From the NCBI GenBank assembly GCA_963743885.1, contig CAVURJ010000001.1:438321-502320 (forward strand): a stretch of 64,000 nt of DNA, written 5' to 3'. Below are positions 187-18,249 of the stretch, in pieces. The position numbers and the translations under genes were made by a program. Within the stretch, counting starts at the first letter, position 1. Each line of letters begins with the position of its first letter. Origin of the DNA: Candidatus Moraniibacteriota bacterium (lineage in GTDB: Bacteria; Patescibacteriota; Minisyncoccia; Moranbacterales; UBA1568). The notes beneath the pieces were generated by a model that saw only the letters and a list, made by a program, of their open reading frames with translations, searched no databases and was not told the DNA's origin.

Positions 187-197
187 ACTCTAATCCT

Positions 198-557: not shown

Positions 558-651
558 CAATAACTCGATGTTTTTTTGAGTTATGCACCCGCTTATTAAA
601 TCAGGGTTATTTGGAAAAGTCCGTAGAATCGACTAGTTTCACCCACACTTT

Positions 652-1302
652 ATGGAGCTCTCGGAAGAGCGTATCAAGGAGTTCCAGGAGATATTCAGGA
701 AGGAATATGGCAGAGAATTGACCTGGGAAGAGGCGACGGAATCCGCTAGGAATCTGCTAGGTCTCTACGAGGTCCTTTATGAGGTAGCTGAGAAGGAATT
801 TTTCCGTAAGGAGAGGCTTAAGAAGAGTCCGGGCGGCTTCTATCTGGAAGCCGAGCATACGTATACGTGCTGCGTCTGTGGGCAGGATATGCCAGGAGAG
901 CGGGTGTGGTATGACCAGTATGGTATCAAATGTCCTCCTTGCCAGGCGGCCGTGAAGAAGCGGCTGATACCGGCTGCGTCTTGTAAGAGCCGTGGCAGTC
1001 GGTATTCGATGTGGGAGTTCGATTACTATTTCGGCATCAAGGCTCCGACTATCAGGAAGTTCATCCGGCAGGGGAAGCTGAAATCCCGTATCGTTCCGGG
1101 GTTAGCTGGAGGGAAGCATTTCGAATTCCTGCTTATAAGGGATAATAAAGGGGTTCTTCCGAAAAAACCGAAGAGTTTTCTCGTATGGGAAGGGAAGTTG
1201 GCGCATGTCGAATATGCGCCAGTTTCGTTACCTGATTTCATGGAAGAAGTCCGTGGGAAGGGGGTTTCGGAAAGGCTGGAATTGGATGCCTCGAGTATTT
1301 GA
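652..1302 (+). CDS. hypothetical protein with a Cys4 zinc-finger-like motif (CCVCG...CPPC)
   Basis: 216-aa ORF; its stop overlaps the start region of the next gene (TTGA). Confidence 0.5.
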   Translation: MELSEERIKEFQEIFRKEYGRELTWEEATESARNLLGLYEVLYEVAEKEFFRKERLKKSPGGFYLEAEHTYTCCVCGQDMPGERVWYDQYGIKCPPCQAAVKKRLIPAASCKSRGSRYSMWEFDYYFGIKAPTIRKFIRQGKLKSRIVPGLAGGKHFEFLLIRDNKGVLPKKPKSFLVWEGKLAHVEYAPVSLPDFMEEVRGKGVSERLELDASSI

Positions 1303-1373
1303 TATGTAGCTTTACTTTAGGCATAAAGTGGCATAGTGTAGAGAAGGGCGATAAGAAAGCGCTATCTATTTTT

Positions 1374-4300: not shown

Positions 4301-4940
4301 GGTAAGTATTATCGATGGAATCCAGGGTGATGAAAAAGATATCATCATATATTCTTTCGTCATAAAGAAGCCGGAGCAGAAGAGGATGTATCAGCCGTTA
4401 ACGGGTGAGGGTGGAGACGTTCAGCGTGATATTAATATGGGTCGTGTGAACGTTGCTTTTTCGAGAGCTCGTCTGCAGGTGCATTGCTTTACCAGTATTC
4501 CCGTCGATGAATTCCCGGAGAATATATGGATAAAGAAATTCTTGCAGTATGCAGGCGAGAACGGAGAAATTGATTTTTATTCGACTGATTTGAAGCCGTT
4601 TGATTCTTATTTTGAAGAGGAATTTTATTCTGTGATAAGGTCAGGGCTAGGGAAGGGATATATTATTCAAAATCAAGTCGGAAGCTGCGGTTTCAAGATT
4701 GACTTTGTTGCTACGAATACAAAAAATGGGAAGAGAATCGCAATTGAATGTGACGGCCCAACTCATTTTAAAGATGAGCTCGATGAGGAACTCGGTATTT
4801 ATGTTGAAAGCGATTATGAAAGACAAGCTGTATTGGAAGCATCAGGATGGAAATTCTATCGTTTGCGATATTCTGATTGGGTTGATGAGAAATTTGAAAA
4901 AGAGAACGTAGTGTCAGATATTAAAAAGCTTTTGATATAG
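1374..4940 (+). CDS. SF1B (Upf1/DNA2-like) helicase with a C-terminal DUF559/Vsr-type endonuclease-like domain; Hhe-like defence protein candidate (alternative TTG start at 1299)
   Basis: Walker A VEGPPGTGKSQT; motif II ILDEASQ; VGDSEQM; YHYRS; GILTFFNAQ; DGIQGDEKDIIIYS; VNVAFSRAR; C-terminal IAIECDGPTHF...WKFYRLRYSDW matches the DUF559/REase fold. Confidence 0.85.
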   Translation: MESRDNLSNFIKYCLGYINLTRRQGLSVGRKEAVVVPEEYLSLEHLLDGDLDGNMGEVISLETFHQYAPKDVPEEMRGAYKLEKQLAEKIENIYNKHRNDQFRKQVLLQFGFFEVELPVEEGVAPAGDDEQSVQSQLPLMPEEPKIKEPKREKYPIFTIPVRIEKDDDGKYVLYTVDTEFQVNTGGLEAILDESSYYQLLEEIGKYEMGERLTLPLSNLEIFREIWEKIESYLKLGDAVFDGDSFKLNEMNLVLSAKANFFLSEDLRKLFEFSEDELKGTALATWINNDGLASSDESDEEESSSGLYFPFSYDKYQLRILSLLKNKAFIVEGPPGTGKSQTISNLLCHLAASGKKVLFVSQKAQALKVVKDKLKSLNIDYLFGYVPNPASNQLSEIDEFDGIAPQLLAMSSHVSKLQDGSYDGLRKREPISLESAAEKAVRLTKNINESIGVQREVVRLNEELVSLNEYEMSITDLDAFKESFGDSNWKQIVALKKRIETLVEGLKRYSASESKKDMDGVFADLDFDDAKYSSAIRAIKEDVSQTAYDRHSKVVRTINTTARNLRLRKERAALPREIIDYIDEKLKSDISRREAVDILSPLLDYCEFFEVKKLLEEDREKLEVSLNKCGVSKEEFQIISDMISETSSEKLEEIKGKIVRVQEIKSELEKLQIEDSQEYSKQLTDLLGASDKRVAIYIQNILNKNIFDKSKSVAVIQKIRRLAKSLGKSKTAFKTFDRLRRDPDNFDTILDLIPIWIMELDDASRIIPLEAGIFDYVILDEASQCNVAYTLPVMFRSKQAIFVGDSEQMRDSTIMFKANKSFDELARRYRIPEELQIKSTGETVQSVLDIAYLRGFQSRTLTYHYRSPKELIGFSNNYFYTPKGKELISLNSHYLTYKDTNRIMLVHEVEVDWGQEISDSSNIAEAKRILELFRELRSDERYKDKSIGILTFFNAQASCIRDLFESEGLKEEDDNYVVSIIDGIQGDEKDIIIYSFVIKKPEQKRMYQPLTGEGGDVQRDINMGRVNVAFSRARLQVHCFTSIPVDEFPENIWIKKFLQYAGENGEIDFYSTDLKPFDSYFEEEFYSVIRSGLGKGYIIQNQVGSCGFKIDFVATNTKNGKRIAIECDGPTHFKDELDEELGIYVESDYERQAVLEASGWKFYRLRYSDWVDEKFEKENVVSDIKKLLI

Positions 4941-4945
4941 ATTCT

Positions 4946-5896
4946 ATGGATTCAGGACAGAAGACTGACTATAGTGGAGTTGTAAAAATAATCCTTGTGA
5001 TAGCGCTTTTCCCGTTTGTCGTTGTTTGGTATGTATGGACGAAGACTAATTGGACAAAGCAAAATAAATGGATTGTGACCGCCGCCGTAGCGGTTCTTTC
5101 TTTGCTTATCATAAATTCTTCTAATGGGAGTGCGACAACTCGACAAGCAGAGGCATGGCGGCAGGCAGAGAAGATTAAACAAGAACCAGTCCAGCAGAGA
5201 TTGGTTGAAAAGGAAGATGTTCGGCAGGAGCCAGAACAACAGGTTATTGCAGAGGTAGCCGAACAAGAAAATGTTCCAGAAGAAGTATTTAAGGTTACTC
5301 GTGTTGTTGATGGCGATACTATACAGCTTGAGAATGGACAGAAGGTGCGGTATATCGGCATCGATACTCCGGAGACTGTCGAACCGAGAAAGCCTGTGCA
5401 ATGTTTTGGAAAAGAGGCAAGCGACAAGAATAAGGAGCTTGTAGAGGGGCAGGAGGTGCGTCTGGTGAAGGACACCTCTGAAACCGATAAATATGACCGG
5501 CTGCTTCGATACGTGTATGTTGGGGATACGTTCGTGAACGACTATCTTGTCCGGAATGGTTATGCTCATTCTTCGAGCTATCCGCCGGATATAAAGAATC
5601 AAGACCAGCTCCGTCTTGCTGAGCAAGAAGCCAGGGAAAATAAGCGGGGATTGTGGGCTGATAATGCCTGTAAGGAAGATGTTGTTGAAGCCCCTATTGT
5701 TTCTGCAGTAGCGACTGGTGCTGCAGCGGCTTCTGTTGTTGAAAGTACGCCATCTTCTGGTGGGGTGGTTAAAAAGAGCACGACTAGTATCTGTCATGCG
5801 CCAGGAACGACTTATTATGCTAAAACAAAGAATTATACCCCTTATAATTCGATAGAGGAGTGCTTGAAGAGCGGGGGAAGATTGCCGAAGAGATAA
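4946..5896 (+). CDS. membrane-anchored thermonuclease (SNase/micrococcal-nuclease family) with a Cys/His-containing C-terminal tail
   Basis: N-terminal TM helix; SNase core VVDGDTIQL...RYIGIDTPE...RLLRYVYV...EARENKRGLW; 5-nt gap after the helicase gene. Confidence 0.85.
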   Translation: MDSGQKTDYSGVVKIILVIALFPFVVVWYVWTKTNWTKQNKWIVTAAVAVLSLLIINSSNGSATTRQAEAWRQAEKIKQEPVQQRLVEKEDVRQEPEQQVIAEVAEQENVPEEVFKVTRVVDGDTIQLENGQKVRYIGIDTPETVEPRKPVQCFGKEASDKNKELVEGQEVRLVKDTSETDKYDRLLRYVYVGDTFVNDYLVRNGYAHSSSYPPDIKNQDQLRLAEQEARENKRGLWADNACKEDVVEAPIVSAVATGAAAASVVESTPSSGGVVKKSTTSICHAPGTTYYAKTKNYTPYNSIEECLKSGGRLPKR

Positions 5897-5911
5897 GGGA
5901 AGGTATTTGTA

Positions 5912-6418
5912 ATGTTGGTGGCGTGGATTCATATGAAGACTAAAGGTTGGTATAAGAAAGTCTTGTTTGAAAATACAAGAGAAGTATTGAGCATTGGGAT
6001 GACTTATGTAATTACCGCTCTTGTTCTTTTACTCTGGAATTTTGCACTTGGTATAAAGTTTGAATGGCATGAAATATCACCATTCTCGGAGCCAAGTGTT
6101 TTTATTCGTATATTTTATAGCGCATTCACCTTTGTCACTCTAGGATGGTTGTTATATACGATTCATTTCTATAAAGTATTACATGATATTCTCGTAAAGA
6201 TTTTTGGCTTATGGAGTGTTTATTCTTTTATCAAGGCAATAGTCTGGGCGTTTTTGATGGCAGTTTCTTATTTTTATGTTGTCCCATGGCTGTTTGATGT
6301 TTTGAATGCTGGGACATCGGTTTTGTTTAATATTGCTAACCTAGTGCTGTATCTTATTCCTCCAGTCGGGATATCTATGATAGTCGGAACGATTTATCTT
6401 TTTTTGAAGAAAAGCTGA
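5912..6418 (+). CDS. polytopic membrane protein, unknown function
   Basis: 168-aa ORF with 4-5 hydrophobic helices; 15-nt gap after the nuclease gene. Confidence 0.55.
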   Translation: MLVAWIHMKTKGWYKKVLFENTREVLSIGMTYVITALVLLLWNFALGIKFEWHEISPFSEPSVFIRIFYSAFTFVTLGWLLYTIHFYKVLHDILVKIFGLWSVYSFIKAIVWAFLMAVSYFYVVPWLFDVLNAGTSVLFNIANLVLYLIPPVGISMIVGTIYLFLKKS

Positions 6419-6475
6419 AGGATTTATATCGGTGGACAACATCTCGTATCATGATAATTCATCCAGTATATTTTT

Positions 6476-8086
6476 ATGATAAATAAAATTCGTATTGTTA
6501 ATTTTCGTTCGATACAAAATTTAGAGATTCACCCGCACAATCTTTGCGTATTGATAGGTCCAAATAGCTCTGGAAAAACAAACGTGCTGAAGGCGTTAGA
6601 TATTTTGCTTGGAGAGACATATCCAACTGAGCGAGCTTTTAGCAAGGATGATTTTTATGGGAGAAATTCAAATTTGGAAATTCTAATACAAGTGTGGTTT
6701 AAAGAGCCGCTTGAAGCTTGTAAATTGACATCTGTAGCTACAAGGAGAAAGGAGCAGTGTTTGATATCGAGCTTGAGACTCACACATACTAAGAATGATA
6801 ACGAATTTTTTCAGACAAAATTTATTGCTATTGACGTTGATGGAAATGAGTACTGGGCGTCTGGAGATGTTAGAGAAAAAGTGAATTTCATATATATACC
6901 ATCCGAGAGGAATTTAGAGAAGCAAATGTCGGTCAGTCAATGGTCTTTGTTGGGGAGAATACTCCGTAAGATTGATGAGAATTTCAGAAAAAATAGCCTT
7001 GGAGACGGCCCTAGTGAGATGGAGGAGGATTTTAGAGAGTCCATGAGTGAGCCGAAGAGAATTCTTGAAGCGGAATTGCCGAATGGCATGTTGAGTTATG
7101 CGAAATTTAAGCAGGTATTTACGGGTATTTGTAAGGAAAATGCAAATGGGTTAGCGAATGATTTTGACCTTGATTTGGAAATTTATGACCCGCTGTTTTA
7201 TTATAAGACGATTCAGCTGCTTGGGAGAGAGGAGATGGGGACCTTTAACATCCATGAGCTTGGGTCGGGGGTGCAAAACCTGGTGTTATTATCGCTGTTT
7301 AGGACTTATGCAAAATTAATGAAGAACAAAGCTGTTCTGGCTATCGAAGAGCCGGAAATCTATTTATATCCACAGGCGCAGAGGCAGCTTTATTCGAACT
7401 TTATTGGCATGGCGTATCCAGAATCTGGTAGTCAGGATGGAACCCAAATAATTTATACGACTCACAATCCAAACTTTGTAGATGCCACTAGGGCGAATGA
7501 GGTTGAAATTCTTCAGAAAAGCGCTTCAAGAGGGACTTGTTTGCTTCCAAAGAGTGAGTATGTAACATCGGAGAGGTCTGAGCAGGATAGGTTTAAGACG
7601 TATGCTCATTTTAATACTGAGAGGAACGAGATATTCTTTGCAAAGAAAGTGCTTCTGGTTGAAGGGGACTCTGACAAGATTATGTGGTCGACTCTTCTTG
7701 GTGAAAAATGGGAAATCCTTATAAATAAAGAAGGTATATCTATTATTGAATGCGGAGGGAAAACCGGAGTTCTGTATTTTATTGGCGTGTGCAGATTTAT
7801 GGGGATAGATTATTTCGCTATATGGGACGCAGATAATGGAGATGATGAGGTTAATGATAGACACGGGCTTTTTAGTGCGACTATCAGTGAAGGAAGGGGA
7901 TTGGAAATTCCTGGTAACCTCGAACAATTTCTATCAAGTAAATTCGATGCAGTTAGTTACCCGCAATTTGTATTTTCACAAAGCAATAAGATTGAACATG
8001 CTTTTGAGTGGGCTAACTCAGTTAATATTTCGGATATCCCAGAAGAATTTCTTTCTATTAAAAATTTTTTCATGTTGGCGGACTGA
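6476..8086 (+). CDS. OLD-family ATP-dependent endonuclease (N-terminal ABC-type ATPase plus C-terminal TOPRIM)
   Basis: Walker A LIGPNSSGKTN; Walker B-like LAIEEPEIYLYPQAQ; TOPRIM signature LLVEGDSDKIMW...IIECGGKTGV. Confidence 0.85.
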   Translation: MINKIRIVNFRSIQNLEIHPHNLCVLIGPNSSGKTNVLKALDILLGETYPTERAFSKDDFYGRNSNLEILIQVWFKEPLEACKLTSVATRRKEQCLISSLRLTHTKNDNEFFQTKFIAIDVDGNEYWASGDVREKVNFIYIPSERNLEKQMSVSQWSLLGRILRKIDENFRKNSLGDGPSEMEEDFRESMSEPKRILEAELPNGMLSYAKFKQVFTGICKENANGLANDFDLDLEIYDPLFYYKTIQLLGREEMGTFNIHELGSGVQNLVLLSLFRTYAKLMKNKAVLAIEEPEIYLYPQAQRQLYSNFIGMAYPESGSQDGTQIIYTTHNPNFVDATRANEVEILQKSASRGTCLLPKSEYVTSERSEQDRFKTYAHFNTERNEIFFAKKVLLVEGDSDKIMWSTLLGEKWEILINKEGISIIECGGKTGVLYFIGVCRFMGIDYFAIWDADNGDDEVNDRHGLFSATISEGRGLEIPGNLEQFLSSKFDAVSYPQFVFSQSNKIEHAFEWANSVNISDIPEEFLSIKNFFMLAD

Positions 8087-8092
8087 CCCCTT

Positions 8093-8875
8093 ATGTTTAA
8101 GAGTCATATTGAATATGTAGATGTTGACTTATCTGTTTTTAATGATGCTGAGAATAAGAATTTTCGGTCCATGTTGAGTTTTTTTAAAGATGAGGTTTTC
8201 TTTTTTAAGAGGCTGAGTGCTTTGTTTGTAGCATCAAATAAGAAGGTTGGAGACGAATACATCGTTATTATTGAATTATTTCAGCTTTGTAATCATAATT
8301 TAGCTTTTTCTTTCCTTAATATCCTTCGAGGTCATTTTAAAGAACCATGTATCATAAGTAGAAACTCGATTGAGGCTGTGGCTCAGGCGACTATAATAAA
8401 GGAGAATCTTCGATTTAATAATGAAACGTGGTGTAGGGGTGAAAAGGGAAAAGAAAATATTAAGGCATTTAAGGAGTTATTTAAAAAAGATAAATTTAGG
8501 AATTGTAAAAACAAGGATGAATTGAAGGTTTTTTTCAGAATGTTTTCATCATTTGGTCACTCGAACATACTTAATGGGATACATCGCACAAAAAAAGAAG
8601 GAGATAAGTTACTATTTGGTTTTTTCGATGTAGAAGTTGATAATCTTGAAGCCTGGATGGTGAGGTATCTGAATTATATTATCGTGGTTTATAGTATAAT
8701 TTTGGAGGAATTTTCTGATATTTTTCGTGATTTCGGTATAGCCTCTCCCGATGACGTAAAGAAGCTAAGGGAGGAGCATAGGGTGTATATGGAGACCAGA
8801 CGAGGGCTACTGAGTCAATTTGGGAAATATGATTTTGTAGAAGAATATGAGGACGTAAATAAAAAAGAAGGCTAG
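8093..8875 (+). CDS. hypothetical cytoplasmic protein, no recognisable domain; co-operonic with the OLD nuclease
   Basis: 260-aa ORF starting 6 nt after the OLD stop; AT-rich codon usage as in the rest of the island. Confidence 0.55.
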   Translation: MFKSHIEYVDVDLSVFNDAENKNFRSMLSFFKDEVFFFKRLSALFVASNKKVGDEYIVIIELFQLCNHNLAFSFLNILRGHFKEPCIISRNSIEAVAQATIIKENLRFNNETWCRGEKGKENIKAFKELFKKDKFRNCKNKDELKVFFRMFSSFGHSNILNGIHRTKKEGDKLLFGFFDVEVDNLEAWMVRYLNYIIVVYSIILEEFSDIFRDFGIASPDDVKKLREEHRVYMETRRGLLSQFGKYDFVEEYEDVNKKEG

Positions 8876-8887
8876 TATAAGAGATGT

Positions 8888-9868
8888 ATGAAATATCAAG
8901 TACTTGCCGGAATTAATGGTCCGTTTTTGCCGGATTCTTATAAAGTTTCTGATATTTTTTTGTTTCGGAAACCGCCTTTTTCTCTTCAAGCAAAATTTTC
9001 TTCGGAAATTACAGATGAGCAACCCTTGGTAGATAGGGGTGTTAATCATCGAATTCGATTTAATGCGAAAAAGCCACGTTTTAGAAAATTTAGCTCCGAA
9101 CACTGCATTGAGATTATCTTGGAAAGCGAAAGCCCTCATTGGGCCATTGAATTTGCAAAATTAAGGATAGAACAGTTAGTTGAAGCATTGACTGTGGCTT
9201 CGTTTAATGTGGATAAGGTGCATCCACGTACTGGGCGTAGGTTACTGCATGGTATTAATGATATTTATCAATATCAGATAGAGGGAGTATTTGATGAGAA
9301 GGGTATCCCTGTTGATGGTGCCGATATAGAAGGGACAGCTATTAATTTTTTCCCCGAAAAATTTCCTACTGATTTCGAACAATTAGCGAATGATATTTTA
9401 AGGTGTAATGATACAACCTTGATAAAGGCGATGTTTTATCTAAAGAGAGCGAAAATGTTTTCATATGAGTATTATTCCGAATTGGAAGTGTTCCTCAATT
9501 CGATGAAATGTATAGAACTTCTTGTTAACAGGTTTTATCCTCATGGCTTGGAGAAAAAAGATCATAAGAAAGCTTCTTTCAAAGAAAAGCTGAATGGGTT
9601 TGATAGTAATCCAGGCGTTGCAAGTATACTTGGGATTGATAGTAATTATAATAGTTTGACACAAGACGGTTGGGACTGTAGGAACACCATGGACATGGCG
9701 CATGCTAGTGAATATTTTAAGTTAATTGCTCAGCCATTTCCAGAGGAGATAAATCGTGTAGCGTATTATTTCGTTTTGAAATACGTACAATATTTAAAGA
9801 AAAATCAACCAGATGATTTTTGGGAAATGAAAGACTTGGATGATGAATGGTGGGAAATGTTTAGGTAA
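8888..9868 (+). CDS. hypothetical protein, no recognisable domain; third gene of the OLD-linked trio
   Basis: 326-aa ORF 12 nt after the previous stop; AAGAGA 5 nt upstream of the ATG. Confidence 0.55.
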   Translation: MKYQVLAGINGPFLPDSYKVSDIFLFRKPPFSLQAKFSSEITDEQPLVDRGVNHRIRFNAKKPRFRKFSSEHCIEIILESESPHWAIEFAKLRIEQLVEALTVASFNVDKVHPRTGRRLLHGINDIYQYQIEGVFDEKGIPVDGADIEGTAINFFPEKFPTDFEQLANDILRCNDTTLIKAMFYLKRAKMFSYEYYSELEVFLNSMKCIELLVNRFYPHGLEKKDHKKASFKEKLNGFDSNPGVASILGIDSNYNSLTQDGWDCRNTMDMAHASEYFKLIAQPFPEEINRVAYYFVLKYVQYLKKNQPDDFWEMKDLDDEWWEMFR

Positions 9869-10094
9869 ATTTTTGCGAAAAACATCGTGATTTTTGTTAT
9901 CACCCTCGAATCACCTCCTTTCTAGGGAGATAATGGTGTACAAAATAAACATTGTCTTCGGATGATGTTTATCAAGAGTTGATACCTAGTATCAAATTCT
10001 TAACCAATATGGTCGTTCATTACGCTTTATCTGTAGGAGCTTCGGCAATGACAGACGTAGTAATGAAACATAGTAGCCATAGAGACCTCTGTCC

Positions 10095-10152
10095 AAGGAC
10101 TAACCGCAAAAGATTTATCTGCCGTAAGGTAGATTTCGATTCTATATTGTTT
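10095..10152. repeat. 58-bp direct repeat, copy 1 (AAGGACTAACCGCAAAAGATTTATCTGCCGtAAGGTAGATTTCGATTCTATATTGTTT)
   Basis: Identical except one T/C to 16819-16876; ORF-track entries 9952..10170 and 16667..16885 share the peptide NRKRFICRKVDFDSILF only because they translate this repeat. Confidence 0.85.
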
Positions 10153-10159
10153 GCAAAAT

Positions 10160-10183
10160 CCAGCCTGTAATGGGCTGGTTTTT
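10160..10183 (+). terminator. rho-independent terminator-like hairpin (CCAGCC-TGTAAT-GGGCTGG plus T5)
   Basis: Perfect 6-7 bp stem followed by TTTTT immediately after the first 58-bp direct-repeat copy. Confidence 0.5.
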
Positions 10184-10235
10184 GCTATGGAAAGGGTATA
10201 TAATCAGGCCAGATATTAATTCGATAGCGACTATT

Positions 10236-11012
10236 ATGAGGAACTGCGAGAAGTGCGGAGCTGCCAATGAGGCAGATGTTCGTTTTTGTGTTAATTGCGG
10301 GAATAGGCTTACGGACAATCCTGCTCCTATTGCACCGAGACCAGTTGCGCATATGGATATGCCTGCTCCGAAAGCGGTATCTCCGGCTCAGCACAAAGCA
10401 CCTGGGAACCAATATTGCGAGAAGTGTGGAGCTGCCAATGAGATGGACGTCCGTTTTTGCGTGAATTGCGGGAGCGCTATGGCATCGGTTGGAAATCCTA
10501 GTTTTTCGAATGGACAAGGGAGCATGAATAGGATGTATCAGTCGGCGCAGCCGATAGCGGATCGATATGTGTCCGATGAAGAGATGGTGCACCTTCGATC
10601 CGTACCGAACCCAGTGATGGTGATCTGGGAGAGTCTCCTGTTTCCGGAAAAAATGATCGCTATCGGGGCAATCCTGAATTGTCTGGTAGCCCTCTTCTGG
10701 GTGGCTGATGAGTACCTGTCCGTGTTTATGGCTATCCTCTACTTCGCTACCATGGCGGCCTCCCTGGTGCTGATCCATCTTTCAAGGGGGATCTCTCTGT
10801 TGAAGAAAGCCGAACTGTCTCGCTGGCAGGTTGCTATTGGCGCCTTCTGGCTATCTTGGCTGCTGAATATCGTCTTTAGGGGTACCGAGTATTATGGTGA
10901 TGTGTATGCTCTTTTCGTCTTCAATGCCATCACTTCCATCGCCATGTTTTCCGGGGCGATTATGTTGCAGGGGACGATACTGCAGCATATCTTCCAGCAG
11001 AAGAATAAATAA
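10236..11012 (+). CDS. double zinc-ribbon membrane protein (two CxxCG...CxxCG modules plus multiple TM helices)
   Basis: MRNCEKCGAANEADVRFCVNCG and CEKCGAANEMDVRFCVNCG; C-terminal half hydrophobic. Confidence 0.6.
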   Translation: MRNCEKCGAANEADVRFCVNCGNRLTDNPAPIAPRPVAHMDMPAPKAVSPAQHKAPGNQYCEKCGAANEMDVRFCVNCGSAMASVGNPSFSNGQGSMNRMYQSAQPIADRYVSDEEMVHLRSVPNPVMVIWESLLFPEKMIAIGAILNCLVALFWVADEYLSVFMAILYFATMAASLVLIHLSRGISLLKKAELSRWQVAIGAFWLSWLLNIVFRGTEYYGDVYALFVFNAITSIAMFSGAIMLQGTILQHIFQQKNK

Positions 11013-11022
11013 TTTTAAAACT

Positions 11023-12315
11023 ATGTTCTGCTCGAGCTGTGGTACGGAAAATTCAGGGGGAGCGAACTTCTGCAAGAATTGCGGAGTGCCTATTAGTGGC
11101 AACCAACTCGAAGATTTTCCCCTCATAAAGGAAAATCCGCTTTTTAAAAATAAGAAAAAAAGCGCAGGTCTTTTAGTTTTAGCCGTGTTTGTTTGTGGTG
11201 GCGCTTTGTTTAGTTATGACTATTATGATAAAAATCATTCTTATGTCAGATATACCGATTCTGCGACAGATAATACACCTTCTGCAAAAGCTACAATTCC
11301 AGCATCTGATGATAACTTCACAATAGACAAAAATGGCACGCTGACAAAATACATTGGATCTGACAGAAATGTTGTTATTCCTGATGGAGTGAAAAGTATT
11401 GGCAGCAATGCGTTTATCGGAATAGTAACGAATATCGGTAGTGATGGGAAGTTTACTGTTGGAGGTGACAACATTACCAGTGTTGTCATTCCAAATAGCG
11501 TCACAAGCATCGCAAGCGAAGCATTTTCCAATGGATGCAGAGAGATCAAGGAAATAGTCATTCCAAATAGCGTCACAAGTATCGGGGATGAGGCCTTCAG
11601 TCCTTGCAGATCGCTTGTCAGACTGACTTTGCCAAAAACTATTGCAAGTGTCGGGAATAAAGTTTTTGCAAATTCATTATTAAAAGAACCGGTAATTTTA
11701 AATAATGGCAAAAGACTTGTCTATGCTCCGCATTTTGATGAATCATATGTCATACCGGACGGAGTGGAGGATATTTCCGGAGCATTTGCAACTTATGTAG
11801 TTGGCGGTGGAAATCTTTCAAACATAACGATTCCGAATAGCGTCAAGACTATCGGCGATTCTGCTTTTAGTGGCTGTTATGGACTCACAGATATATCAAT
11901 ACCAAATTCAGTCAAGACTATCGGCGCTAGCGTTTTTTATGATACGCATATCACCAATTTGGTTTTTCCGGATAGTATCATTAGTTTGGGAAAAAATGTA
12001 TTGGGATGTGAAATCTCCGGCGGCGGCAGTGATATCACAGGCTTGACGATTCCAGGAAGCATCAAAAATATCGAAGAATCAACATTTAGCAATTGTTCGA
12101 ATCTCAAACGAGTAATCATATCTGACGGAGTGAAAAGTATCGGAGAGAGTGCTTTTTTTATGGGAGGCCTCACTAGTATTACAATTCCAAAAAGCGTAAC
12201 TGATATTCATTATAATGCGTTTGGAAAAAACAAAAAACTTGAAATAAGCGGTTATAAAAATTCCTATGCCGAAGAATTTGCTAAGACTTATGGGCATCCC
12301 TTTAGCGCTTTATAA
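11023..12315 (+). CDS. zinc-ribbon-anchored surface protein with BspA-type leucine-rich repeats
   Basis: N-terminus MFCSSCGTENSGGANFCKNCG then a TM helix; repeated IPNSVTSIG/IPNSVKTIG...AF..C..L units typical of BspA-like LRRs. Confidence 0.65.
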   Translation: MFCSSCGTENSGGANFCKNCGVPISGNQLEDFPLIKENPLFKNKKKSAGLLVLAVFVCGGALFSYDYYDKNHSYVRYTDSATDNTPSAKATIPASDDNFTIDKNGTLTKYIGSDRNVVIPDGVKSIGSNAFIGIVTNIGSDGKFTVGGDNITSVVIPNSVTSIASEAFSNGCREIKEIVIPNSVTSIGDEAFSPCRSLVRLTLPKTIASVGNKVFANSLLKEPVILNNGKRLVYAPHFDESYVIPDGVEDISGAFATYVVGGGNLSNITIPNSVKTIGDSAFSGCYGLTDISIPNSVKTIGASVFYDTHITNLVFPDSIISLGKNVLGCEISGGGSDITGLTIPGSIKNIEESTFSNCSNLKRVIISDGVKSIGESAFFMGGLTSITIPKSVTDIHYNAFGKNKKLEISGYKNSYAEEFAKTYGHPFSAL

Positions 12316-12343
12316 GTAAATTTTATAAATATTAATAAAAATT

Positions 12344-14848
12344 ATGTATTGTAAAAATTGTGGCGCTCAAAATTCAGATTCTGCGAAGTTTTGCAAGAGT
12401 TGCGGAGAAAATCTTTTTCAGGTTCGAAATAAAGTTCCTCAAGTAAAACAAAAAAAAATAGTTCCGCAAGAAGTAAAAAAATGGAATTGGGGCGCATTTA
12501 TTTTTGGATGGATATGGTGCGTAGGTCATAAGCAATGGTTGTTGGCTATTGCAAGTTTGTTTCTTACGGCAGTTATTTTTGTCGCGTCTTTTTTTATTGG
12601 CAATATAATTCGTTCTGTTGTTTTTTTTATTCCTGCTACTAAAGACAACTTGATTATTAGTGGCATATTTAGCTTTTTGATTCCGCTCCTTATATTTATT
12701 TCTGCCTTTATTGCTAAAGCTGTTTTTTGGGGAAAAAGAGGTAATGAGTGGGCTTGGATGAAAGGAAAATATGAAACTCCTCAGCAACTTTTTGCAAAAG
12801 AGAGGAAATGGAGAAATTGGGCGATTGGATTGCCTGTTTTCTCCATGCTATTTGTCGCGTTGACTACTGGTGGATTGCATTGGTTTGCTTTGTATCAAGA
12901 AAGTCATTATACACCTGTTGAGGCTTCTTTTGTTAAGATTTATGACGGCTTTGGAATTGGAGCGGATGGGGGTTCCCTTTGGGCGTGGGGAAATAACGAT
13001 AATGGAGAGCTTGGCGATGGCACAACAACAAACAGAAAGACGCCCAAGCAAATCATAACAAGTGGTGTAAAAGAAGTGGTAAAAACATGTAATTCTGGCT
13101 GTAGCGTCTTTGTAATAAAAACGGATGGTAGTCTTTGGGGTTGGGGGGATAATAGTGGTAGTTTGTTGGGTGATGGATCATCAGGTGATAAGAATAATTC
13201 ATTGATACCTAAGCAAATAATTTCAAGCGGGATAAAGCAAGTAGAGGTTTATTCAACTTATTATGGTTATCCTGGTGGGTGGGCATTTGTTGTGAAAACG
13301 GATGGCAGTCTTTGGGGTTGGGGGGATAATTCCAATGGAGAGCTTGGCGACGGAACCACAATAGCGCACATTTATACGCCTAAGCAAATAATAGCCGAGG
13401 ACGTATCAGTAGTTAAAATAAGTGGTGACAATACCTTTATTCTGAAAACAGACGGTTCTCTTTGGGGTTGGGGAAAAAATTATGGCTTGCTCGGCGATGG
13501 GAGTAAAAAAATAGTTTATACCCCTAAGAAAATAATTGATAGTGGAGTAAAAAAAATAGTTTCGGGTGATAAAGATATTTTTGTCATAAAAACAGACGGT
13601 TCTCTTTGGGGATGGGGAGAAAATAAATATGGCCAGCTTGGCAAAGTTTCAGATACTTCCAAGCCAACGCAAATAATTGCTAGTGGGGTAAAAGAGGCGG
13701 TTAGCAATTATGGCACTGTCTTTGTCATAAAAACAGACGGTTCGCTTTGGGGGTGGGGCTGCAACAGTTCGGGTCAACTTGGCGATGGAGCCAAGGTGGA
13801 CATCTCTACTCCAAAACAAATAATTGAAACCGGCGTGGCGGATATTGCATTAAATTATAGCAGTACCTTTGCTATAAAAACAGATAGCAGTCTCTGGGGG
13901 TGGGGAGGAAACGCCTATATTGGACTTGGTATTGGTGATGGAACTATGCAGGAAAGTTTCATACCGATACAAATAATTTCAAATGGGGTGATTGATATAA
14001 ATACAAGTAACGGATCTGTGTTTGCTCTGAAAAAAGATGGCTCTCTTTGGTCGTGGGGGTATAATGGTAGCGGATCATCTTGGTTGTACTGGCCTTGGGG
14101 AGGTGGTGGTCATCTTGGCGATGGAACAGCAATAAACAGAAATACTCCAAAGCAAATAACCACGGGTAGCGGTTTGAATCTCTCATTGGCGGCATCATTG
14201 GAACAATCGGCAGCAACACCCGTAAAAGAAATACCTGCGGATGATTTTGTTTGTGGAACGTCGCAAGTCAAGGACGCTGATGATAACGGATATAAGACCA
14301 TTAAAGTGGGGAGCCAATGCTGGATGGCATCTAATATGAAAGTCGGAAAGAAGATCAATGGCACGAAAGATCAGGCTAACAATGGAAAGATTGAAAGGTG
14401 GTGTTATGATGATAAAAGCGATAATTGTAAGAATGATGGCGGACTTTATTCTTGGGATGAAGCGATGCAATATTCCGCTCAGGCTCAGGGAATCTGTCCG
14501 ACCGGATGGCACATCCCTACTAATACCGATTGGTATGCACTGGAAAATTATTTGAAAGATCCCGGAAAGACCTGTGATGCTTCTCGAAGTAGCGCCGACT
14601 GTGCCGGTGCTGGAACAAAACTTATGAGTGACGGATCATCTAGAATGGATTTCCCCCTAGCTGGAGGCCGAGTTTATGTCAATGGATCGTTCTTTGGTCG
14701 GGGCACAGATGCATCTTTATGGTCTTCTACCGCCGAGGCCTCCACGTCGAATGCGTGGGGCAGATTCTTGGATTCTGGTAAATCCACGGTCAATAGTGGG
14801 ACGAGTATCAAGGCAAATGGCAATTCAGTACGATGCGTAAAAAACTAG
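12344..14848 (+). CDS. zinc-ribbon-anchored membrane protein with RCC1-like beta-propeller repeats and a C-terminal Fibrobacter-succinogenes-major-paralogous (Fib_succ_major) domain
   Basis: MYCKNCGAQNSDSAKFCKSCG; about 10 repeats of IKTDGSLWGWG.N..G.LGDG; C-terminal ...KVGSQCWMASNM...GGLYSWDEAM...CPTGWHIPT...NSVRCVKN. Confidence 0.7.
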   Translation: MYCKNCGAQNSDSAKFCKSCGENLFQVRNKVPQVKQKKIVPQEVKKWNWGAFIFGWIWCVGHKQWLLAIASLFLTAVIFVASFFIGNIIRSVVFFIPATKDNLIISGIFSFLIPLLIFISAFIAKAVFWGKRGNEWAWMKGKYETPQQLFAKERKWRNWAIGLPVFSMLFVALTTGGLHWFALYQESHYTPVEASFVKIYDGFGIGADGGSLWAWGNNDNGELGDGTTTNRKTPKQIITSGVKEVVKTCNSGCSVFVIKTDGSLWGWGDNSGSLLGDGSSGDKNNSLIPKQIISSGIKQVEVYSTYYGYPGGWAFVVKTDGSLWGWGDNSNGELGDGTTIAHIYTPKQIIAEDVSVVKISGDNTFILKTDGSLWGWGKNYGLLGDGSKKIVYTPKKIIDSGVKKIVSGDKDIFVIKTDGSLWGWGENKYGQLGKVSDTSKPTQIIASGVKEAVSNYGTVFVIKTDGSLWGWGCNSSGQLGDGAKVDISTPKQIIETGVADIALNYSSTFAIKTDSSLWGWGGNAYIGLGIGDGTMQESFIPIQIISNGVIDINTSNGSVFALKKDGSLWSWGYNGSGSSWLYWPWGGGGHLGDGTAINRNTPKQITTGSGLNLSLAASLEQSAATPVKEIPADDFVCGTSQVKDADDNGYKTIKVGSQCWMASNMKVGKKINGTKDQANNGKIERWCYDDKSDNCKNDGGLYSWDEAMQYSAQAQGICPTGWHIPTNTDWYALENYLKDPGKTCDASRSSADCAGAGTKLMSDGSSRMDFPLAGGRVYVNGSFFGRGTDASLWSSTAEASTSNAWGRFLDSGKSTVNSGTSIKANGNSVRCVKN

Positions 14849-14851
14849 CAT

Positions 14852-15040
14852 ATGTTTTGTAAGAATTGCGGCATAGAAAACATGGAGGTAGCTAGGTTTT
14901 GCAAGAATTGTGGGACCGTTTTGAATGACATTGGATCAACCAAATGTGTAGCAAAGCCATCGGATCAAACCTTGGGATGGAGTGGATGGATAGGCCTGAT
15001 CCTTTTTCTCGCAGTATTTATATTGCGGTTTATTATGTAA
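14852..15040 (+). CDS. small zinc-ribbon membrane protein
   Basis: MFCKNCGIENMEVARFCKNCG plus a C-terminal TM helix; 62 aa. Confidence 0.5.
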   Translation: MFCKNCGIENMEVARFCKNCGTVLNDIGSTKCVAKPSDQTLGWSGWIGLILFLAVFILRFIM

Positions 15041-15106
15041 TCGGTGATGACTTTGTCTATATTGGTTCGAAAATCAAGGTTGATGAATAAATTTAATTAG
15101 AAGCCT

Positions 15107-15850
15107 ATGCTCTGTCAAAATTGCGGAAGCGAAAACTCAAACGAAGCAAAGTTCTGCAAGAATTGCGGCAAGGTTTTGACGGGAAAAAAAAGCCTGTCGG
15201 ATAGAGCTTCTGAATTCATCAAAACTCCCACGGGGAAATTTACGGTAGGGATATTGGTTGTCTTTGTAGTTGGCGGAGTAGTTGCAAGAGGGTTATCCAA
15301 GAGCAAACAGATCGAAACTTCGGCAATTAGCGCCTCTGCCCAGCAAGAGCAACAAATTACGGATCCTCTGAGTGAAATTGTCGCTAACCCTTCTGATGAT
15401 AATGCACTGGCTGAACAAAAAAATAATAAAACAAAAAAATCTAAAAGTGATTCAAAAAATCCCGATATATACATAGATCCTGGCACGGGGGAGAAGGTAG
15501 TTACAATACCTGGGAAAACACCGGAGAACACTAATGGGCACAATATAACGATGCTTGGATTCGCTCATTTAGTGAATGATTATGGCATGACATTCGAACA
15601 AGTGAAGAAACTCCAATCGGAGTTTGAGGACTATTCTTCAAAAAAAGATGCTTCATTCCATGAACTTAGCCTAACTTTAAAAGAAATAAGAACAACTGTA
15701 GATTCATCCAATGGTACTGCAGAGTTGAGTATACCAATAGTACTTGATCGTAAAGAAAAAGAAATTGCAAAAGTTTCTTATTTTGGTATAGATAATCCAA
15801 CGCTTACTATTTATAATTCTGACGATGTTCAGGTGTATAGTTCTAAATAA
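15107..15850 (+). CDS. zinc-ribbon-anchored membrane protein
   Basis: MLCQNCGSENSNEAKFCKNCG plus TM; the 5' about 75 nt are near-identical to the gene at 15895. Confidence 0.6.
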   Translation: MLCQNCGSENSNEAKFCKNCGKVLTGKKSLSDRASEFIKTPTGKFTVGILVVFVVGGVVARGLSKSKQIETSAISASAQQEQQITDPLSEIVANPSDDNALAEQKNNKTKKSKSDSKNPDIYIDPGTGEKVVTIPGKTPENTNGHNITMLGFAHLVNDYGMTFEQVKKLQSEFEDYSSKKDASFHELSLTLKEIRTTVDSSNGTAELSIPIVLDRKEKEIAKVSYFGIDNPTLTIYNSDDVQVYSSK

Positions 15851-15894
15851 TTTAAGATGCTATTAGTAAGTTGGTGGTGTTTAATCTGAGGCCT

Positions 15895-16827
15895 ATGCTC
15901 TGTCAAAATTGCGGAAGCGAAAACTCGAATGAGGCCAAGTTCTGCAAGAATTGCGGAAATCAATTTGGTAATGAGCAATTAAAAAATATCACACAGAAAA
16001 CAAGCGTGTTTTTTAAGAACGATAAAAAAATCGTTATTTGGATATTGGTTATTGTTGGCTTGTTTTTGGCTGCTGGAATCAGTTGGGGTATGTTCTTAAC
16101 ATCTCGTTCTAATTCAAATAATTCAATTGTCACAAATTTATTTGATTCACAAAAAGATACAAACACTGAAACCTTTTTTGAAAAAGCCTCTGAACTAACA
16201 AATTTGTTTAGTACCTGCGCAACAATGACATCAGGTCAAAGCTGTACTTTTGGTGGTCTCACTTATGGTGCAGTCAAGGCGGAAGACGGGAGAATATGGT
16301 TGGACAGAAATCTTGGTGCAACACGAGTGGCCAAAAAATCTGAAGATAAAGAGGCGTATGGTTGGTATTTTCAATGGGGGCGTGCTGCTGATGGTCATCA
16401 GATTCCAACAAGCGGAGCCACGGATAAGCTTAGCACAACCGATACCCCGAATCACGACAAGTTTATTGAGAGTGGCTATCCTTATAATTGGCGCAGTACG
16501 GAGAATGATAATCTTTGGCAAGAAGTAGGTGGGATTAATAATCCATGCCCTGGAGGATGGCGGGTACCAACAGCAAGCGAATGTAAAAAATTATTTTCCT
16601 CTGCTAATATTACCAACTCTTCAACAGCCTTCAGCTCATCATTGAAATTACCTTGGGCTGGATTCCGTGTATTTGCTGATATGTTTTATTATAGTTTTGG
16701 CGGATTCTGGTCTAGTAATTTTTCTGGTGACCAGGCTTACGTTGCGGGCTTTGATTTATCCAAGGCAGCTTATGATAGCCGCCAATGGCCCGTCAGAGGG
16801 TGGCCAGTTCGTTGTATTAAGGACTAA
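15895..16827 (+). CDS. zinc-ribbon-anchored membrane protein with a Fib_succ_major ectodomain
   Basis: MLCQNCGSENSNEAKFCKNCG plus TM; C-terminal ...GRIWLDRNLGA...PCPGGWRVPT...WPVRCIKD. Confidence 0.65.
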   Translation: MLCQNCGSENSNEAKFCKNCGNQFGNEQLKNITQKTSVFFKNDKKIVIWILVIVGLFLAAGISWGMFLTSRSNSNNSIVTNLFDSQKDTNTETFFEKASELTNLFSTCATMTSGQSCTFGGLTYGAVKAEDGRIWLDRNLGATRVAKKSEDKEAYGWYFQWGRAADGHQIPTSGATDKLSTTDTPNHDKFIESGYPYNWRSTENDNLWQEVGGINNPCPGGWRVPTASECKKLFSSANITNSSTAFSSSLKLPWAGFRVFADMFYYSFGGFWSSNFSGDQAYVAGFDLSKAAYDSRQWPVRGWPVRCIKD

Positions 16828-16876
16828 CCGCAAAAGATTTATCTGCCGCAAGGTAGATTTCGATTCTATATTGTTT
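16819..16876. repeat. 58-bp direct repeat, copy 2; overlaps the last codons of gene 15895..16827 and marks the low-GC/high-GC boundary
   Basis: 57/58 identity with 10095-10152; followed by nested palindromes at 16882-16925 and a perfect 18-bp palindrome at 16970-16987. Confidence 0.85.
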
Positions 16877-16938
16877 ACCCAGTGAAATTACTCATTTGAT
16901 GAGTACTCGTGTAACGAGATTTCACAGGGTTCAGAAAG

Positions 16939-16960
16939 CACTCCGAATGGAGTGTTTTTT
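16939..16960 (+). terminator. terminator-like hairpin CACTCC-GAAT-GGAGTG plus T6
   Basis: Stem-loop followed by TTTTTT just past the island boundary. Confidence 0.45.
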
Positions 16961-17058
16961 GTTTGACCACGTCGTTCGCGAACGACGATGGTTGACTTCC
17001 GGGCTATTTCCCGCTAGACTCTGGGCGCGAGATTCGTTCGTTCCAAAAGGAGGCAACA

Positions 17059-17600: not shown

Positions 17601-17603
17601 TGA

Positions 17604-18217: not shown

Positions 18218-18249
18218 GCGATGGAGTCTGTCGGTGGACGTCATTCAGA

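Follow-up and report, generated by a model that had tools for sequence, protein, structure and literature searches.

The window (the whole stretch of DNA that was analysed, 64,000 nucleotides) holds a 6.7-kb block of six genes, g1 to g6, set between two 58-nt direct repeats and flanked by a second island (island A), rRNA-derived sequence and core genes. We compared the locus with five relatives, the close L006 and L019 and the more distant L003, L004 and L005, and annotated island A with Pfam, PADLOC and PHROGs. From left to right, the features are these:

1..9907, + strand: right part of island A, a separate low-GC phage-like/defence island (context, outside the block), with a ZnR-TM protein (198-557), a 216-aa protein (652-1302), a 1213-aa helicase-nuclease (1299-4940), an SNase (4946-5896), an OLD/GajA-like nuclease (6476-8086) and two genes with no assigned function (8093-8875, 8888-9868)
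9908..9929, + strand: orphan 16S rRNA 3'-terminal fragment, 22 nt, GAATCACCTCCTTTCTAGGGAG, carrying the anti-Shine-Dalgarno end; the 16S body is absent to its left
9930..10094, + strand: proximal 16S 3' trailer (transcribed spacer, hairpins), by similarity to L006, L003 and L004
10095..10152, + strand: direct repeat copy 1, predicted 3' strand of the pre-16S leader-trailer processing helix; 10095-10116 conserved, 10117-10136 a lineage-specific 20-nt GNRA hairpin insert (loop GTAA), 10137-10152 conserved
10160..10184, + strand: T1 terminator, CCAGCC-TGTAATG-GGCTGG (hairpin 10160-10178) and T run; first feature of the inserted DNA
10236..11012, + strand: g1, double zinc ribbon and multi-pass membrane domain (Pfam Zn_Ribbon_1 x2, DZR; hydropathy)
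11023..12315, + strand: g2, zinc ribbon, TM residues 45-68, BspA-type LRR ectodomain (Pfam LRR_5, E = 7.8e-57)
12344..14848, + strand: g3, zinc ribbon, TM segments, RCC1 propeller and Fib_succ_major (FISUMP) domain (Pfam WD40_RLD 3.6e-71, RCC1, Fib_succ_major 1.1e-28)
14852..15040, + strand: g4, 62 aa, zinc ribbon, TM segment and short tail (Pfam, hydropathy)
15107..15850, + strand: g5, zinc ribbon, TM segment and a 180-aa ectodomain with no Pfam match (Pfam, hydropathy)
15895..16827, + strand: g6, zinc ribbon, TM segment and FISUMP domain (Fib_succ_major/Lcl_C; Pfam, homologues)
16819..16876, + strand: direct repeat copy 2, hairpin loop GCAA; the original trailer end comes next
16877..16931, + strand: palindromic three-way-junction element (predicted fold), ACCCAGTGAAAT...ATTTCACAGGGTT, a native part of the trailer
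16932..16965, + strand: T2 terminator, native 16S trailer end, conserved in L005, L006 and L019
17059..17478, + strand: first core gene rightward, 139 aa, the anchor for orthologous loci

The six co-directional genes each encode an N-terminal zinc ribbon (Pfam) followed by a TM segment (hydropathy, g1-g6), and the two methods agree with the original prediction of six zinc-ribbon proteins that share a membrane anchor and differ in their ectodomains. The zinc ribbons are predicted to lie on the cytoplasmic side and the ectodomains, different in each protein, outside the cell. At the nucleotide level g5 and g6 are 90% identical over their 5' 80 nt. Both g3 and g6 have a Fib_succ_major domain and close with ...VRC[IV]K[DN], the C-terminus conserved in FISUMP proteins; the domain scores 101 bits in g3 and 28 bits in g6 by hmmscan, the latter under the 33.9-bit cutoff, while a database entry identical to g6 (P0006) has a precomputed PF09603 match. 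A search for g6 homologues returned 672 at E <= 0.001, and among the best 120 of these 672 most have PF09603 on record, the closest non-self homologue among the matches listed (again the best 120 of 672) being just 49% identical. The g6 protein ends ...VRCIKD-stop, and because ...RC[IVL]K[DN]-stop ends most of about 120 FISUMP homologues (the best 120 of 672), we consider its KD-stop native. Along with the distance of g6 from its listed homologues, base composition marks the block as foreign, with a GC3 of about 0.34 versus about 0.69 in the core (by gene, 0.33-0.44 in g2-g6, 0.58 in g1 and 0.61-0.79 in core genes).

The repeat pair (10095-10152 and 16819-16876) is identical at 57 of 58 positions, and the one-base difference noted at the outset proved to be T in copy 1 versus C in copy 2 at repeat position 31, which leaves 30 nt as the longest exact run common to both. 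A scan of the window allowing <=3 mismatches recovered these two copies of the 58-mer and no others (100 shuffles gave 0). As had been claimed, the second copy overlaps the stop region of the last paralog: its first 9 nt, AAG GAC TAA, encode the final two residues of g6 and its stop. Its placement at the junction between island and core likewise held, GC stepping there from about 0.41 to about 0.53, and the terminator hairpin said to follow the first copy is found as the terminator-like hairpin and T run of T1. The claim that the repeats bracket the block stood with one correction: they do bracket it, but copy 1 sits within 245 nt of core-derived DNA (9908-10152), outside the island DNA. A common intergenic element scattered over many unrelated sites, the finding that would have told against an acquired unit, was not borne out, the repeat having been found at this locus alone, once per relative and at the orthologous position. 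Scans of genome, metagenome and viral collections with exact-core patterns gave no match to the repeat core.

Comparison with the relatives, together with fold predictions, showed the 58-mer to be the 3' strand of the predicted 16S leader-trailer (processing) helix, with the lineage-specific 20-nt GNRA hairpin in mid-strand. It begins 166 nt (about 170) beyond the 16S 3' end, and in all five relatives the 16S end and its trailer run collinear with window positions 9908-10152 plus 16877-16965. A search for rRNA genes across the window found none, and the orphan fragment at 9908-9929 is identical to the Rfam-confirmed 16S end of L003 and to the 16S ends of L005 and L019. Window positions 9913-10152 are 99.2% identical to L006 positions 1-240, and positions 10002-10116 are 92% identical to L003 and L004. 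In L003 the 16S rRNA gene lies at 7401-8868 (Rfam, 1278 bits) with the homologous trailer directly 3' of it, and the repeat's homologue there is a 38-mer at 9007-9044, 3' of the 16S end at 8868; this 38-mer form, which has no hairpin insert, is also that of L004 and L005. Duplexes of trailer strand and 16S leader reached -40.8 kcal/mol in L003 (shuffles -16.0±3.0), with pairing over the full length, and -37.0 kcal/mol in a further relative, L017 (shuffles -15.8±2.9). Cofolded with the L003 leader, the window's own 58-mer gave -47.3 (shuffles -22.3±2.8) and paired over its full length, the 20-nt insert standing out as a side hairpin. Because the window genome's own 16S leader falls outside the window, the pairing is demonstrated in relatives only, and the 58-mer's role in pre-16S processing is predicted from it. 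The repeat is read as host sequence with its own role, a strand of the processing helix, and not as a recognisable element-specific att site. The 16S gene is unlinked in L003, and the source, a Moranbacteria-type CPR bacterium, likewise has a 16S rRNA gene with no 23S gene linked to it, an arrangement found in many CPR genomes (bioRxiv 10.1101/705046).

The relatives show what the locus looks like when nothing has been inserted. In L006 and L019 a single repeat copy stands between the same left and right flanks and the block is absent, which makes these true empty sites; L006 positions 183-935 are 88% identical to window positions 16819-17600, and in L019 the 16S end continues directly into the trailer, in the same layout as in L006. 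The more distant L003, L004 and L005 also lack the block, and in each a lone 38-mer follows the 16S trailer and precedes the ortholog of 17059-17478. The 139-aa core protein is 90% identical in L006, 89% in L019 and 70-71% in L003, L004 and L005, with synteny kept downstream. Five relatives with one copy, the same flanks and no block thus bear out the claim that the block is one acquired unit bounded by the repeats. The event was reconstructed from this one filled site and several empty ones, a second instance of the block being found in none of the genome, metagenome and viral collections searched.

To the left, the block is distinct from the phage-like island upstream, from which the 245 nt of core-derived DNA (16S 3' end and trailer, 9908-10152) separate it. 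Island A has a GC of 0.406 versus 0.532 in the core and stops exactly at the orphan 22-nt 16S 3' end, 187 nt left of copy 1, and the Logan gene list places a Dam methylase, ParB_N and TerL_ATPase in the 5.4 kb upstream of the window. No recombinase was found in the eight island A genes inside the window (9.9 kb), and Pfam detected neither recombinase or transposase domains in g1-g6 (for g5 even at E up to 5) nor a casposase or Cas1-like gene in the block. The suggestion that a recombinase gene might lie upstream of the window was followed up and gave nothing: the next 5.4 kb yielded no recombinase among its recorded Pfam matches, several of its genes having no match recorded. The two ends of the block are not related by terminal inverted repeats. 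Both junctions of the block are spanned in an independent assembly by Logan contigs from run ERR12035942, one covering 10082-15132 (copy 1 into g1) and the other 15897-27386 (g6 through copy 2 into the core); the contigs contain the integrated form only. Their break points follow a k=31 rule that was validated on the g5/g6 repeat, and imply a second copy of 9908-10111 with other flanks, overlapping the 58-mer by exactly a 17-nt core; this second copy could belong to a co-occurring strain.

The reading we favour, at a probability of roughly 55%, is that the block was placed behind the 16S trailer strand by one strand-anchored recombination event that duplicated the strand, with no catalyst encoded by the block. 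The conserved trailer strand would have been the place of exchange between incoming DNA and chromosome, as a homologous anchor or in a Campbell-type single crossover, and the left junction does sit in sequence conserved across the relatives. T1 matches the terminator that closes the 16S trailer of L003 and L004 at 24/26 nt (L003 9160-9185), a resemblance which suggests that the incoming DNA carried trailer-like sequence, a possible anchor. The right joint lies on the 9-nt microhomology AAGGACTAA, which closes the FISUMP gene with K-D-stop and also makes up the opening 9 nt of the trailer strand, where it is invariant in L003, L004, L005, L006 and L019; this points to an illegitimate step, beyond the site-specific or homologous recombination first suggested, and the g6 joint would have formed here. 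Under the favoured reading the 58-bp repeat would be a by-product of the recombination event. As the locus stands, copy 1 remains on the rRNA trailer and now reads into the block terminator T1, and copy 2 gives g6 its stop codon before the native trailer end (palindromic element, T2) and the core genes follow. Later recombination between the copies could remove the block. Against this reading, a Campbell crossover needs a near-identical 58-mer on the incoming DNA, the lineage-specific hairpin included, and the repeat ends that coincide with a functional RNA segment, the replacement terminator and the second mobile-looking island resemble, by analogy, integrase-driven tRNA/tmRNA islands.

That resemblance leads to a possible, more tentative account, in which site-specific integration with tandem accretion took place at an attachment site in the 16S 3' end and trailer. 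Island A would be autonomous, with its integrase beyond the window, and the block a non-autonomous, cis-mobilizable type using the same core, AAGGACTAACCGCAAAA, and supplying the remaining stem strand plus a terminator, which would restore the trailer as tRNA/tmRNA islands restore their target. Direct repeats that delimit the insertion exactly, empty sites in relatives and a repeat that takes in an entire functional RNA segment, with a trailer-type terminator after it, all fit such an account, as do the similarly low GC of island A and block, the abutment of island A on the orphan 16S 3' end, the TerL, ParB and Dam methylase genes beyond it, and the 17-nt core by which the implied second copy of 9908-10111 overlaps the 58-mer. 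There is also precedent in the tandem ssrA islands of Dehalococcoides, some of which have no integrase (PMC3146451). Against it stand the lack of an integrase in the block, in the part of island A within the window (9.9 kb) and among the recorded Pfam matches of the next 5.4 kb (several genes there having no record), and the finding of trailer or 16S-end sequence in none of the phage or viral contigs; moreover, the second copy of 9908-10111 could come from a co-occurring strain, and the native-looking C-terminus of g6 at the repeat edge demands a microhomology event anyway. A bolder version, which we regard as rather doubtful, would have the integrative elements of this CPR lineage attach at a dedicated site formed by the 16S 3' end and trailer, used both by island A and by the block as its integrase-less satellite. 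Island A would then recombine 17 nt short of the end of the mature 16S, carrying about 204 nt of 16S end and trailer as restoration, and the satellite would use the same 17-nt processing-stem core and restore the rest of the strand and the terminator.

The remaining explanations fare worse. Deletion between 58-bp direct repeats is possible and would leave exactly the empty sites seen, but an ancestral block lost from the relatives in this way is improbable, given its absence from all five across 70-90% protein identity and its foreign composition, and it leaves the origin of the repeat unexplained. Still less probable is a transposon or other element with a long target-site duplication: both copies do look like recipient sequence, down to the lineage-specific 20-nt hairpin, but transposase, casposase, Cas1-like gene (Pfam) and terminal inverted repeats are all absent, 58 bp is well beyond usual target duplications and the right junction lies inside the native stop region of a gene. 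That an assembly artefact joined unrelated contigs via the repeat is hardly credible even though breaks and misjoins are frequent around rRNA genes in metagenome assemblies and contigs of several relatives stop at the 16S 3' end, because the Logan contigs cross both junctions and an exact run of 30 nt, shorter than k=31, could not have misjoined them.

Set beside known systems, the block can be likened to the islands at the 3' end of stable-RNA genes (tRNA, tmRNA; the Dehalococcoides ssrA arrays, PMC3146451), in that low-GC accessory DNA breaks synteny directly behind a single-copy RNA gene, the flanks are direct repeats taken from the 3' region of that gene, the site is empty in relatives, another island stands in tandem at the locus, and some islands of the known arrays also have no integrase. 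It differs from tRNA/tmRNA islands in that its target is a 16S trailer and processing-stem strand, its repeat is a 58-bp leader-pairing strand instead of a T-arm or acceptor stem, the search for an integrase in the block was negative and a single instance is known. The block also recalls CIMEs in accretion with ICEs or IMEs (reviewed in PMC5704250), with its att-like repeats, no recombination or transfer genes and a larger mobile-looking neighbour; this likeness is drawn from layout, the island A recombinase, the common att core and excision all being putative. Homology-facilitated illegitimate recombination during DNA uptake is described as leaving 3-10 nt of microhomology at the joint (de Vries & Wackernagel 2002 and Prudhomme et al. 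2002, cited in PMC8504540) and usually deleting recipient DNA between anchor and joint. The block resembles such events in having one junction in the conserved rRNA trailer, a possible anchor, and the other at a 9-nt microhomology, but it duplicates 58 bp instead of deleting, which counts against the favoured reading. Insertions inside CPR rRNA genes were reportedly described by Brown and colleagues in 2015. Eukaryotes, too, have rDNA-specific elements that insert at rRNA genes (PMC10946416). Both share with the block the rRNA locus as insertion site, but the block is no intron, homing-endonuclease insertion or retroelement, lies outside the mature rRNA and brings six ordinary protein genes with a 58-bp duplication at its flanks. 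We know of no earlier bacterial mobile elements that target an rRNA gene as islands target tRNA/tmRNA genes, and were the attachment-site reading true, these would be the first.

New genes have here found their landing site in the tail of an rRNA gene. Since rRNA genes are the most conserved sequences of genomes and CPR bacteria usually have one copy, an insertion by which part of the pre-16S processing stem is doubled carries a risk and is informative for that reason. If the 16S trailer were a recurrent landing site, it would offer a portable, near-universal homology or attachment target by which surface-protein and defence genes could travel between CPR lineages, whose genomes are tiny and in which few mobile elements are recognised. 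Because 16S genes are points at which assemblies break, islands there would be systematically lost or mis-binned, and such breaks may conceal a class of accessory DNA in metagenome-assembled genomes. As for the cargo, CPR proteins with LRR, RCC1 and FISUMP ectodomains are thought to act in host attachment, and the block by analogy plausibly changes the cell surface; its six paralogous zinc-ribbon ectodomain proteins (LRR, RCC1+FISUMP, FISUMP) are host-attachment candidates, so presence or absence of the block at strain level may alter host range.

The native end of the trailer varies among the relatives as well, the palindromic element being present in 0 copies in L005 and L019, 1 in L006 and 2 in L003 and L004, where the interior of the first copy is inverted relative to that in the window.

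The original prediction described two 58-nt direct repeats enclosing a set of paralogous surface-protein genes, and every structural element of that description was recovered. The two copies (10095-10152 and 16819-16876) are identical at 57 of 58 positions. Allowing up to 3 mismatches, the 64-kb window has no third copy, and chance would be expected to yield none. Copy 2 overlaps the stop of the last paralog, beginning with AAG GAC TAA, the final two codons and stop of g6, and lies at the island/core junction, where GC rises to 0.53 from the 0.41 of the block (the DNA left of the block also has 0.41). After copy 1 comes a strong hairpin (10160-10178) resembling a terminator. Between the copies are six co-directional genes, to each of which domain assignments gave an N-terminal zinc ribbon, followed in every case (g1-g6) by a hydrophobic segment.

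Features of the locus in window coordinates, with g1 to g6 co-directional between the two repeat copies
1-9907, island A: PDC-S37/Hhe-like helicase-nuclease, SNase, OLD/GajA-like nuclease, zinc-ribbon membrane protein and several genes of unknown function
10095-10152, copy 1 of the 58-nt direct repeat
10160-10184, T1, the terminator after copy 1
g1, two zinc ribbons and a multi-pass membrane domain
g2, N-terminal zinc ribbon and BspA LRR_5 domain
g3, N-terminal zinc ribbon, RCC1 and Fib_succ_major
g4, N-terminal zinc ribbon, 62 aa
g5, N-terminal zinc ribbon and an ectodomain matching no known family
g6, N-terminal zinc ribbon and Fib_succ_major/Lcl_C
16819-16876, copy 2 of the repeat
16877-16931, palindromic element with a three-way-junction fold
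16932-16965, T2, the native trailer terminator
17059-17478, flanking core gene (139 aa)

Within this gene family, the zinc-ribbon-coding 5' ends of g5 (15092-15171) and g6 (15880-15959) share 90% identity across 80 nt, of which 36 consecutive nt match exactly, a run that breaks short-read assemblies, and the two ribbons of g1 (10245-10302 and 10416-10473) are 86% identical over 58 nt. Such resemblance at the nucleotide level suggests recent duplication or gene conversion, with the g5/g6 ends pointing to sequence exchange that may still be ongoing among the paralogs.

Homologs of the flanking core gene led us to five orthologous loci with DNA (L003, L004, L005, L006 and L019), the nearest named genomes being Candidatus Moranbacteria/Moraniibacteriota. 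L003 is a JGI contig of 43 kb on which the downstream genes follow the window's order. Directly upstream of these genes lies a complete 16S rRNA gene (7401-8868; Rfam, 1278 bits), and the sequence 3' of this gene is collinear with two separate pieces of the window, 9908-10152 and the palindromic element at 16877-16931. Window positions 9908-9929 (GAATCACCTCCTTTCTAGGGAG) are the anti-Shine-Dalgarno end of 16S, and the repeat begins 166 nt onward. T2, which extends to 16965, has counterparts in L005, L006 and L019, and L003 has a T1-type terminator at that point. The conserved trailer strand reads AAGGACTAACCGCAAA...AGATTTCGATTCTATATTGT; the counterpart of the repeat in L003, L004 and L005 is a 38-mer, to which the window and L006 add 20 nt (10117-10136) folding as a GNRA hairpin. 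The sole difference between the window copies sits in the loop of this insert (GTAA versus GCAA), with GNRA kept, and L019 carries a different hairpin of ~45 nt (about 291-335) at the same point. Small hairpin inserts concentrate in the middle of the trailer strand (10117-10136 and 16841-16860), a hot spot that is empty in L003, L004 and L005.

From end to end, the 38-mer is complementary to a segment that lies ~100-140 nt 5' of 16S, and pairing energies were well separated from those of shuffled sequences for the L003 38-mer and leader (-40.8 kcal/mol versus -16.0±3.0) and for the trailer strand and leader of L017, a more distant Moranbacteria genome (-37.0 versus -15.8±2.9). When cofolded with the L003 leader, the window 58-mer paired along its full length, the 20-nt insert projecting as a side hairpin (-47.3 versus -22.3±2.8). 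The repeat is the 3' strand of the classical leader-trailer helix of pre-16S rRNA, which from established rRNA biology would be a putative RNase III-type processing stem, and its place in this helix explains why a non-coding trailer stretch is 92% conserved where proteins are only ~70% identical. Protein genes, not 23S, follow the L003 16S gene, and such lineages often have unlinked rRNA genes (bioRxiv 10.1101/705046).

Pattern searches with the exact repeat core returned 0 matches in genome, metagenome and viral contig collections, and a pattern joining the two invariant halves across a gap of variable length returned 0 in metagenome and viral contig collections; since the gapped pattern does detect the repeat in the relatives' loci, these zeros indicate that the lineage is absent from the collections scanned. 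The 22-mer of the 16S end gave 0 matches in viral contigs, the trailer sequence gave none among GenBank phages, and a 412-aa core protein compared with genome contigs found only distant, non-syntenic matches, which place the organism near Candidatus Moranbacteria. Two other readings of the repeat were rejected: a paralog's 3' UTR remaining from gene duplication, given that nothing upstream of copy 1 is homologous to any paralog and the frame there is closed by a stop at 10080, and a dispersed intergenic element, given only two copies in the window and one in each relative's locus.

The relatives also reveal what the locus looks like when empty. In L006, an ENA contig from the sample under ERZ27272648 that shares 90% core-protein identity with the window, positions 1-240 correspond to window 9913-10152 at 99.2% and positions 183-935 to window 16819-17600 at 88%, such that the sequence is continuous through a single repeat copy and the block is absent. 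The same layout was seen in L019, a Logan contig from another run, SRR33452767 (protein identity 89%), and the more distant L003, L004 and L005 likewise have one repeat copy and no block. The inserted DNA amounts to 6,724 bp (10153-16876, or any equivalent phase), its GC3 is 0.33-0.44 in g2-g6 versus 0.61-0.79 in core genes, and the nearest homolog of g6 outside the source, among the best 120 of 672 homologs, is only 49% identical. With empty sites in relatives and a foreign composition, the suggested acquisition of the block as a unit is borne out as a derived insertion. Logan contigs from ERR12035942, an independent assembly possibly of the same sample as the source genome, cross both block junctions (window 10082-15132 and 15897-27386), and their other break points fall exactly as predicted for k=31 from the 36-nt g5/g6 repeat.

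The insertion encodes no self-moving function, and the sequence duplicated around it is the host's own trailer. We found no recombinase or transposase in the block and no terminal inverted repeats at its ends, and Pfam searches of ten further window ORFs near tRNA genes and GC dips returned no recombinase. The left junction runs from trailer to copy 1, GCAAAAT and T1, which is identical at 24 of 26 positions to the terminator closing the 16S trailer in L003 and L004, so that the incoming DNA probably started with trailer-like sequence. At the right junction (...CGT TGT ATT / AAG GAC TAA CCGC...), the end of g6 appears native in both length and sequence because a C-terminus of the form ...RC[IVL]K[DN]-stop is family-wide, occurring in the great majority of ~120 Fib_succ_major homologs (the best 120 of 672). 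The nine bases that end g6 also open the trailer strand, without variation, in every relative, and two independently constrained sequences sharing 9 nt right at the joint are a signature of annealing at microhomology. It is at the repeat's right edge (...ATTGTTT) that the relatives' trailers naturally diverge.

Our preferred account is one recombination event, in which the conserved trailer strand would have served the incoming DNA as homology and the other end of that DNA would have been joined at the 9-nt microhomology. The anchor could have been on one side only, in the manner of homology-facilitated illegitimate recombination (HFIR; microhomologies of 3-10 nt, as cited in PMC8504540), or the event could have involved a fragment circularised at AAGGACTAA repeats and then brought into the chromosome by a Campbell crossover. 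Each route fits imperfectly, as deletion is normal in HFIR whereas a duplication is seen here, and the circle would have to bring the lineage-specific hairpin. The main rival, integration driven by an integrase acting in trans, strikes us as possible but rather unlikely; it would suit a repeat that covers a whole functional RNA segment, a replacement terminator that comes after the repeat and a second mobile-looking island in tandem, a pattern that by analogy would match tRNA and tmRNA islands, whose tandem arrays include integrase-less members (PMC3146451; PMC5704250). A transposon with target-site duplication was rejected because transposase and terminal inverted repeats are both absent, and an integron-like cassette array because intI is missing, the repeat has just two copies and it is rRNA trailer.

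Whatever the mechanism, the structural reinterpretation of repeat and block is secure. In architecture the block behaves like islands at stable-RNA genes, but it differs from them in lacking the recombinase that defines such islands, and its target, the processing-stem strand of the 16S trailer, is new as a target; a full-text literature search found no bacterial example of islands targeted to the 16S 3' end or trailer.

To the left of the block lies island A, a distinct low-GC island of which window 1-9907 forms the right-hand part. The candidate anti-phage genes clustered at 1299-8086 encode a helicase of 1213 aa that bears a REase_MTES_1575/DUF559 nuclease at its C-terminus (PADLOC PDC-S37 1.5e-82, Hhe 7.6e-39), an SNase that is secreted or membrane-bound (4946-5896) and an ATPase-TOPRIM nuclease of the OLD/GajA type (6476-8086). 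Genes listed by Logan for the preceding 5.4 kb, outside the window, include Dam methylase, ParB_N and TerL, which together with the window genes make island A phage-like and at least 15.3 kb long. Island A terminates at 9907, flush against the last 22 nt of 16S (junction 9907/9908); no 16S body was found in the window or in the densely packed upstream contig (within 15 kb upstream), and in L019, L005 and L003 the body is continuous with the 16S-end sequence. The ERR12035942 contigs halt at 9937 and restart at 10082, which under the validated k=31 rule places 9908-10111 in that run with a second pair of flanks. This second copy may be the true 16S end, making a 204-bp repeat around an element that may have integrated at the 16S 3' end, and the putative repeat would share exactly AAGGACTAACCGCAAAA with the 58-mer; it could equally come from a co-occurring strain. 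Matches to the 167-aa gene preceding 16S in L003 did not include the source-genome ortholog, and the contigs found with this query end in or shortly after 16S. Nothing closely related to the 326-aa gene, g6, the helicase or the 216-aa gene was found in viral contigs, and a structure prediction seeking a hidden recombinase fold in the 326-aa protein adjoining the 16S fragment was set aside (pLDDT 41.7).

Several smaller elements lie nearby. The palindromic ~55-nt element, with ends CCCAGTGAAAT/ATTTCACAGGG (16877-16931; L003 9045-9152; L006 241-295), follows the trailer strand in 0 copies in L005 and L019, 1 in the window and L006, and 2 in L003 and L004, where the interior of the first copy runs in the opposite orientation to that in the window. 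It has no other copy in the window, and with no Rfam match across 9800-17200 at E up to 1 it is therefore not a known ribozyme or riboswitch. Between T2 and the promoter region of the core gene is a 29-nt hairpin-forming insert (16966-16994; CACGTCGTTCGCGAACGACGATGG...) missing from L005, L006 and L019, and L003 and L004 have there an ~800-bp insert with a 176-aa gene. Further along, a second GC dip (41000-45000, 0.41-0.50) beside tRNA-Glu (41684-41756) may be another small island; its three ORFs searched (41973-42524 on the minus strand, 43869-44441 and 44459-45094) had no Pfam match. A second repeat-flanked gene sits next door to the block, where copies of a hairpin-rich ~51-nt element, 94% identical (17547-17597 and 18162-18211), flank a small membrane-protein gene (17604-18047, minus strand); in L003 both copies likewise surround the homolog, in L005 a single copy is present and the gene absent, and between relatives with ~70% protein identity the element's conservation is 90-97%.
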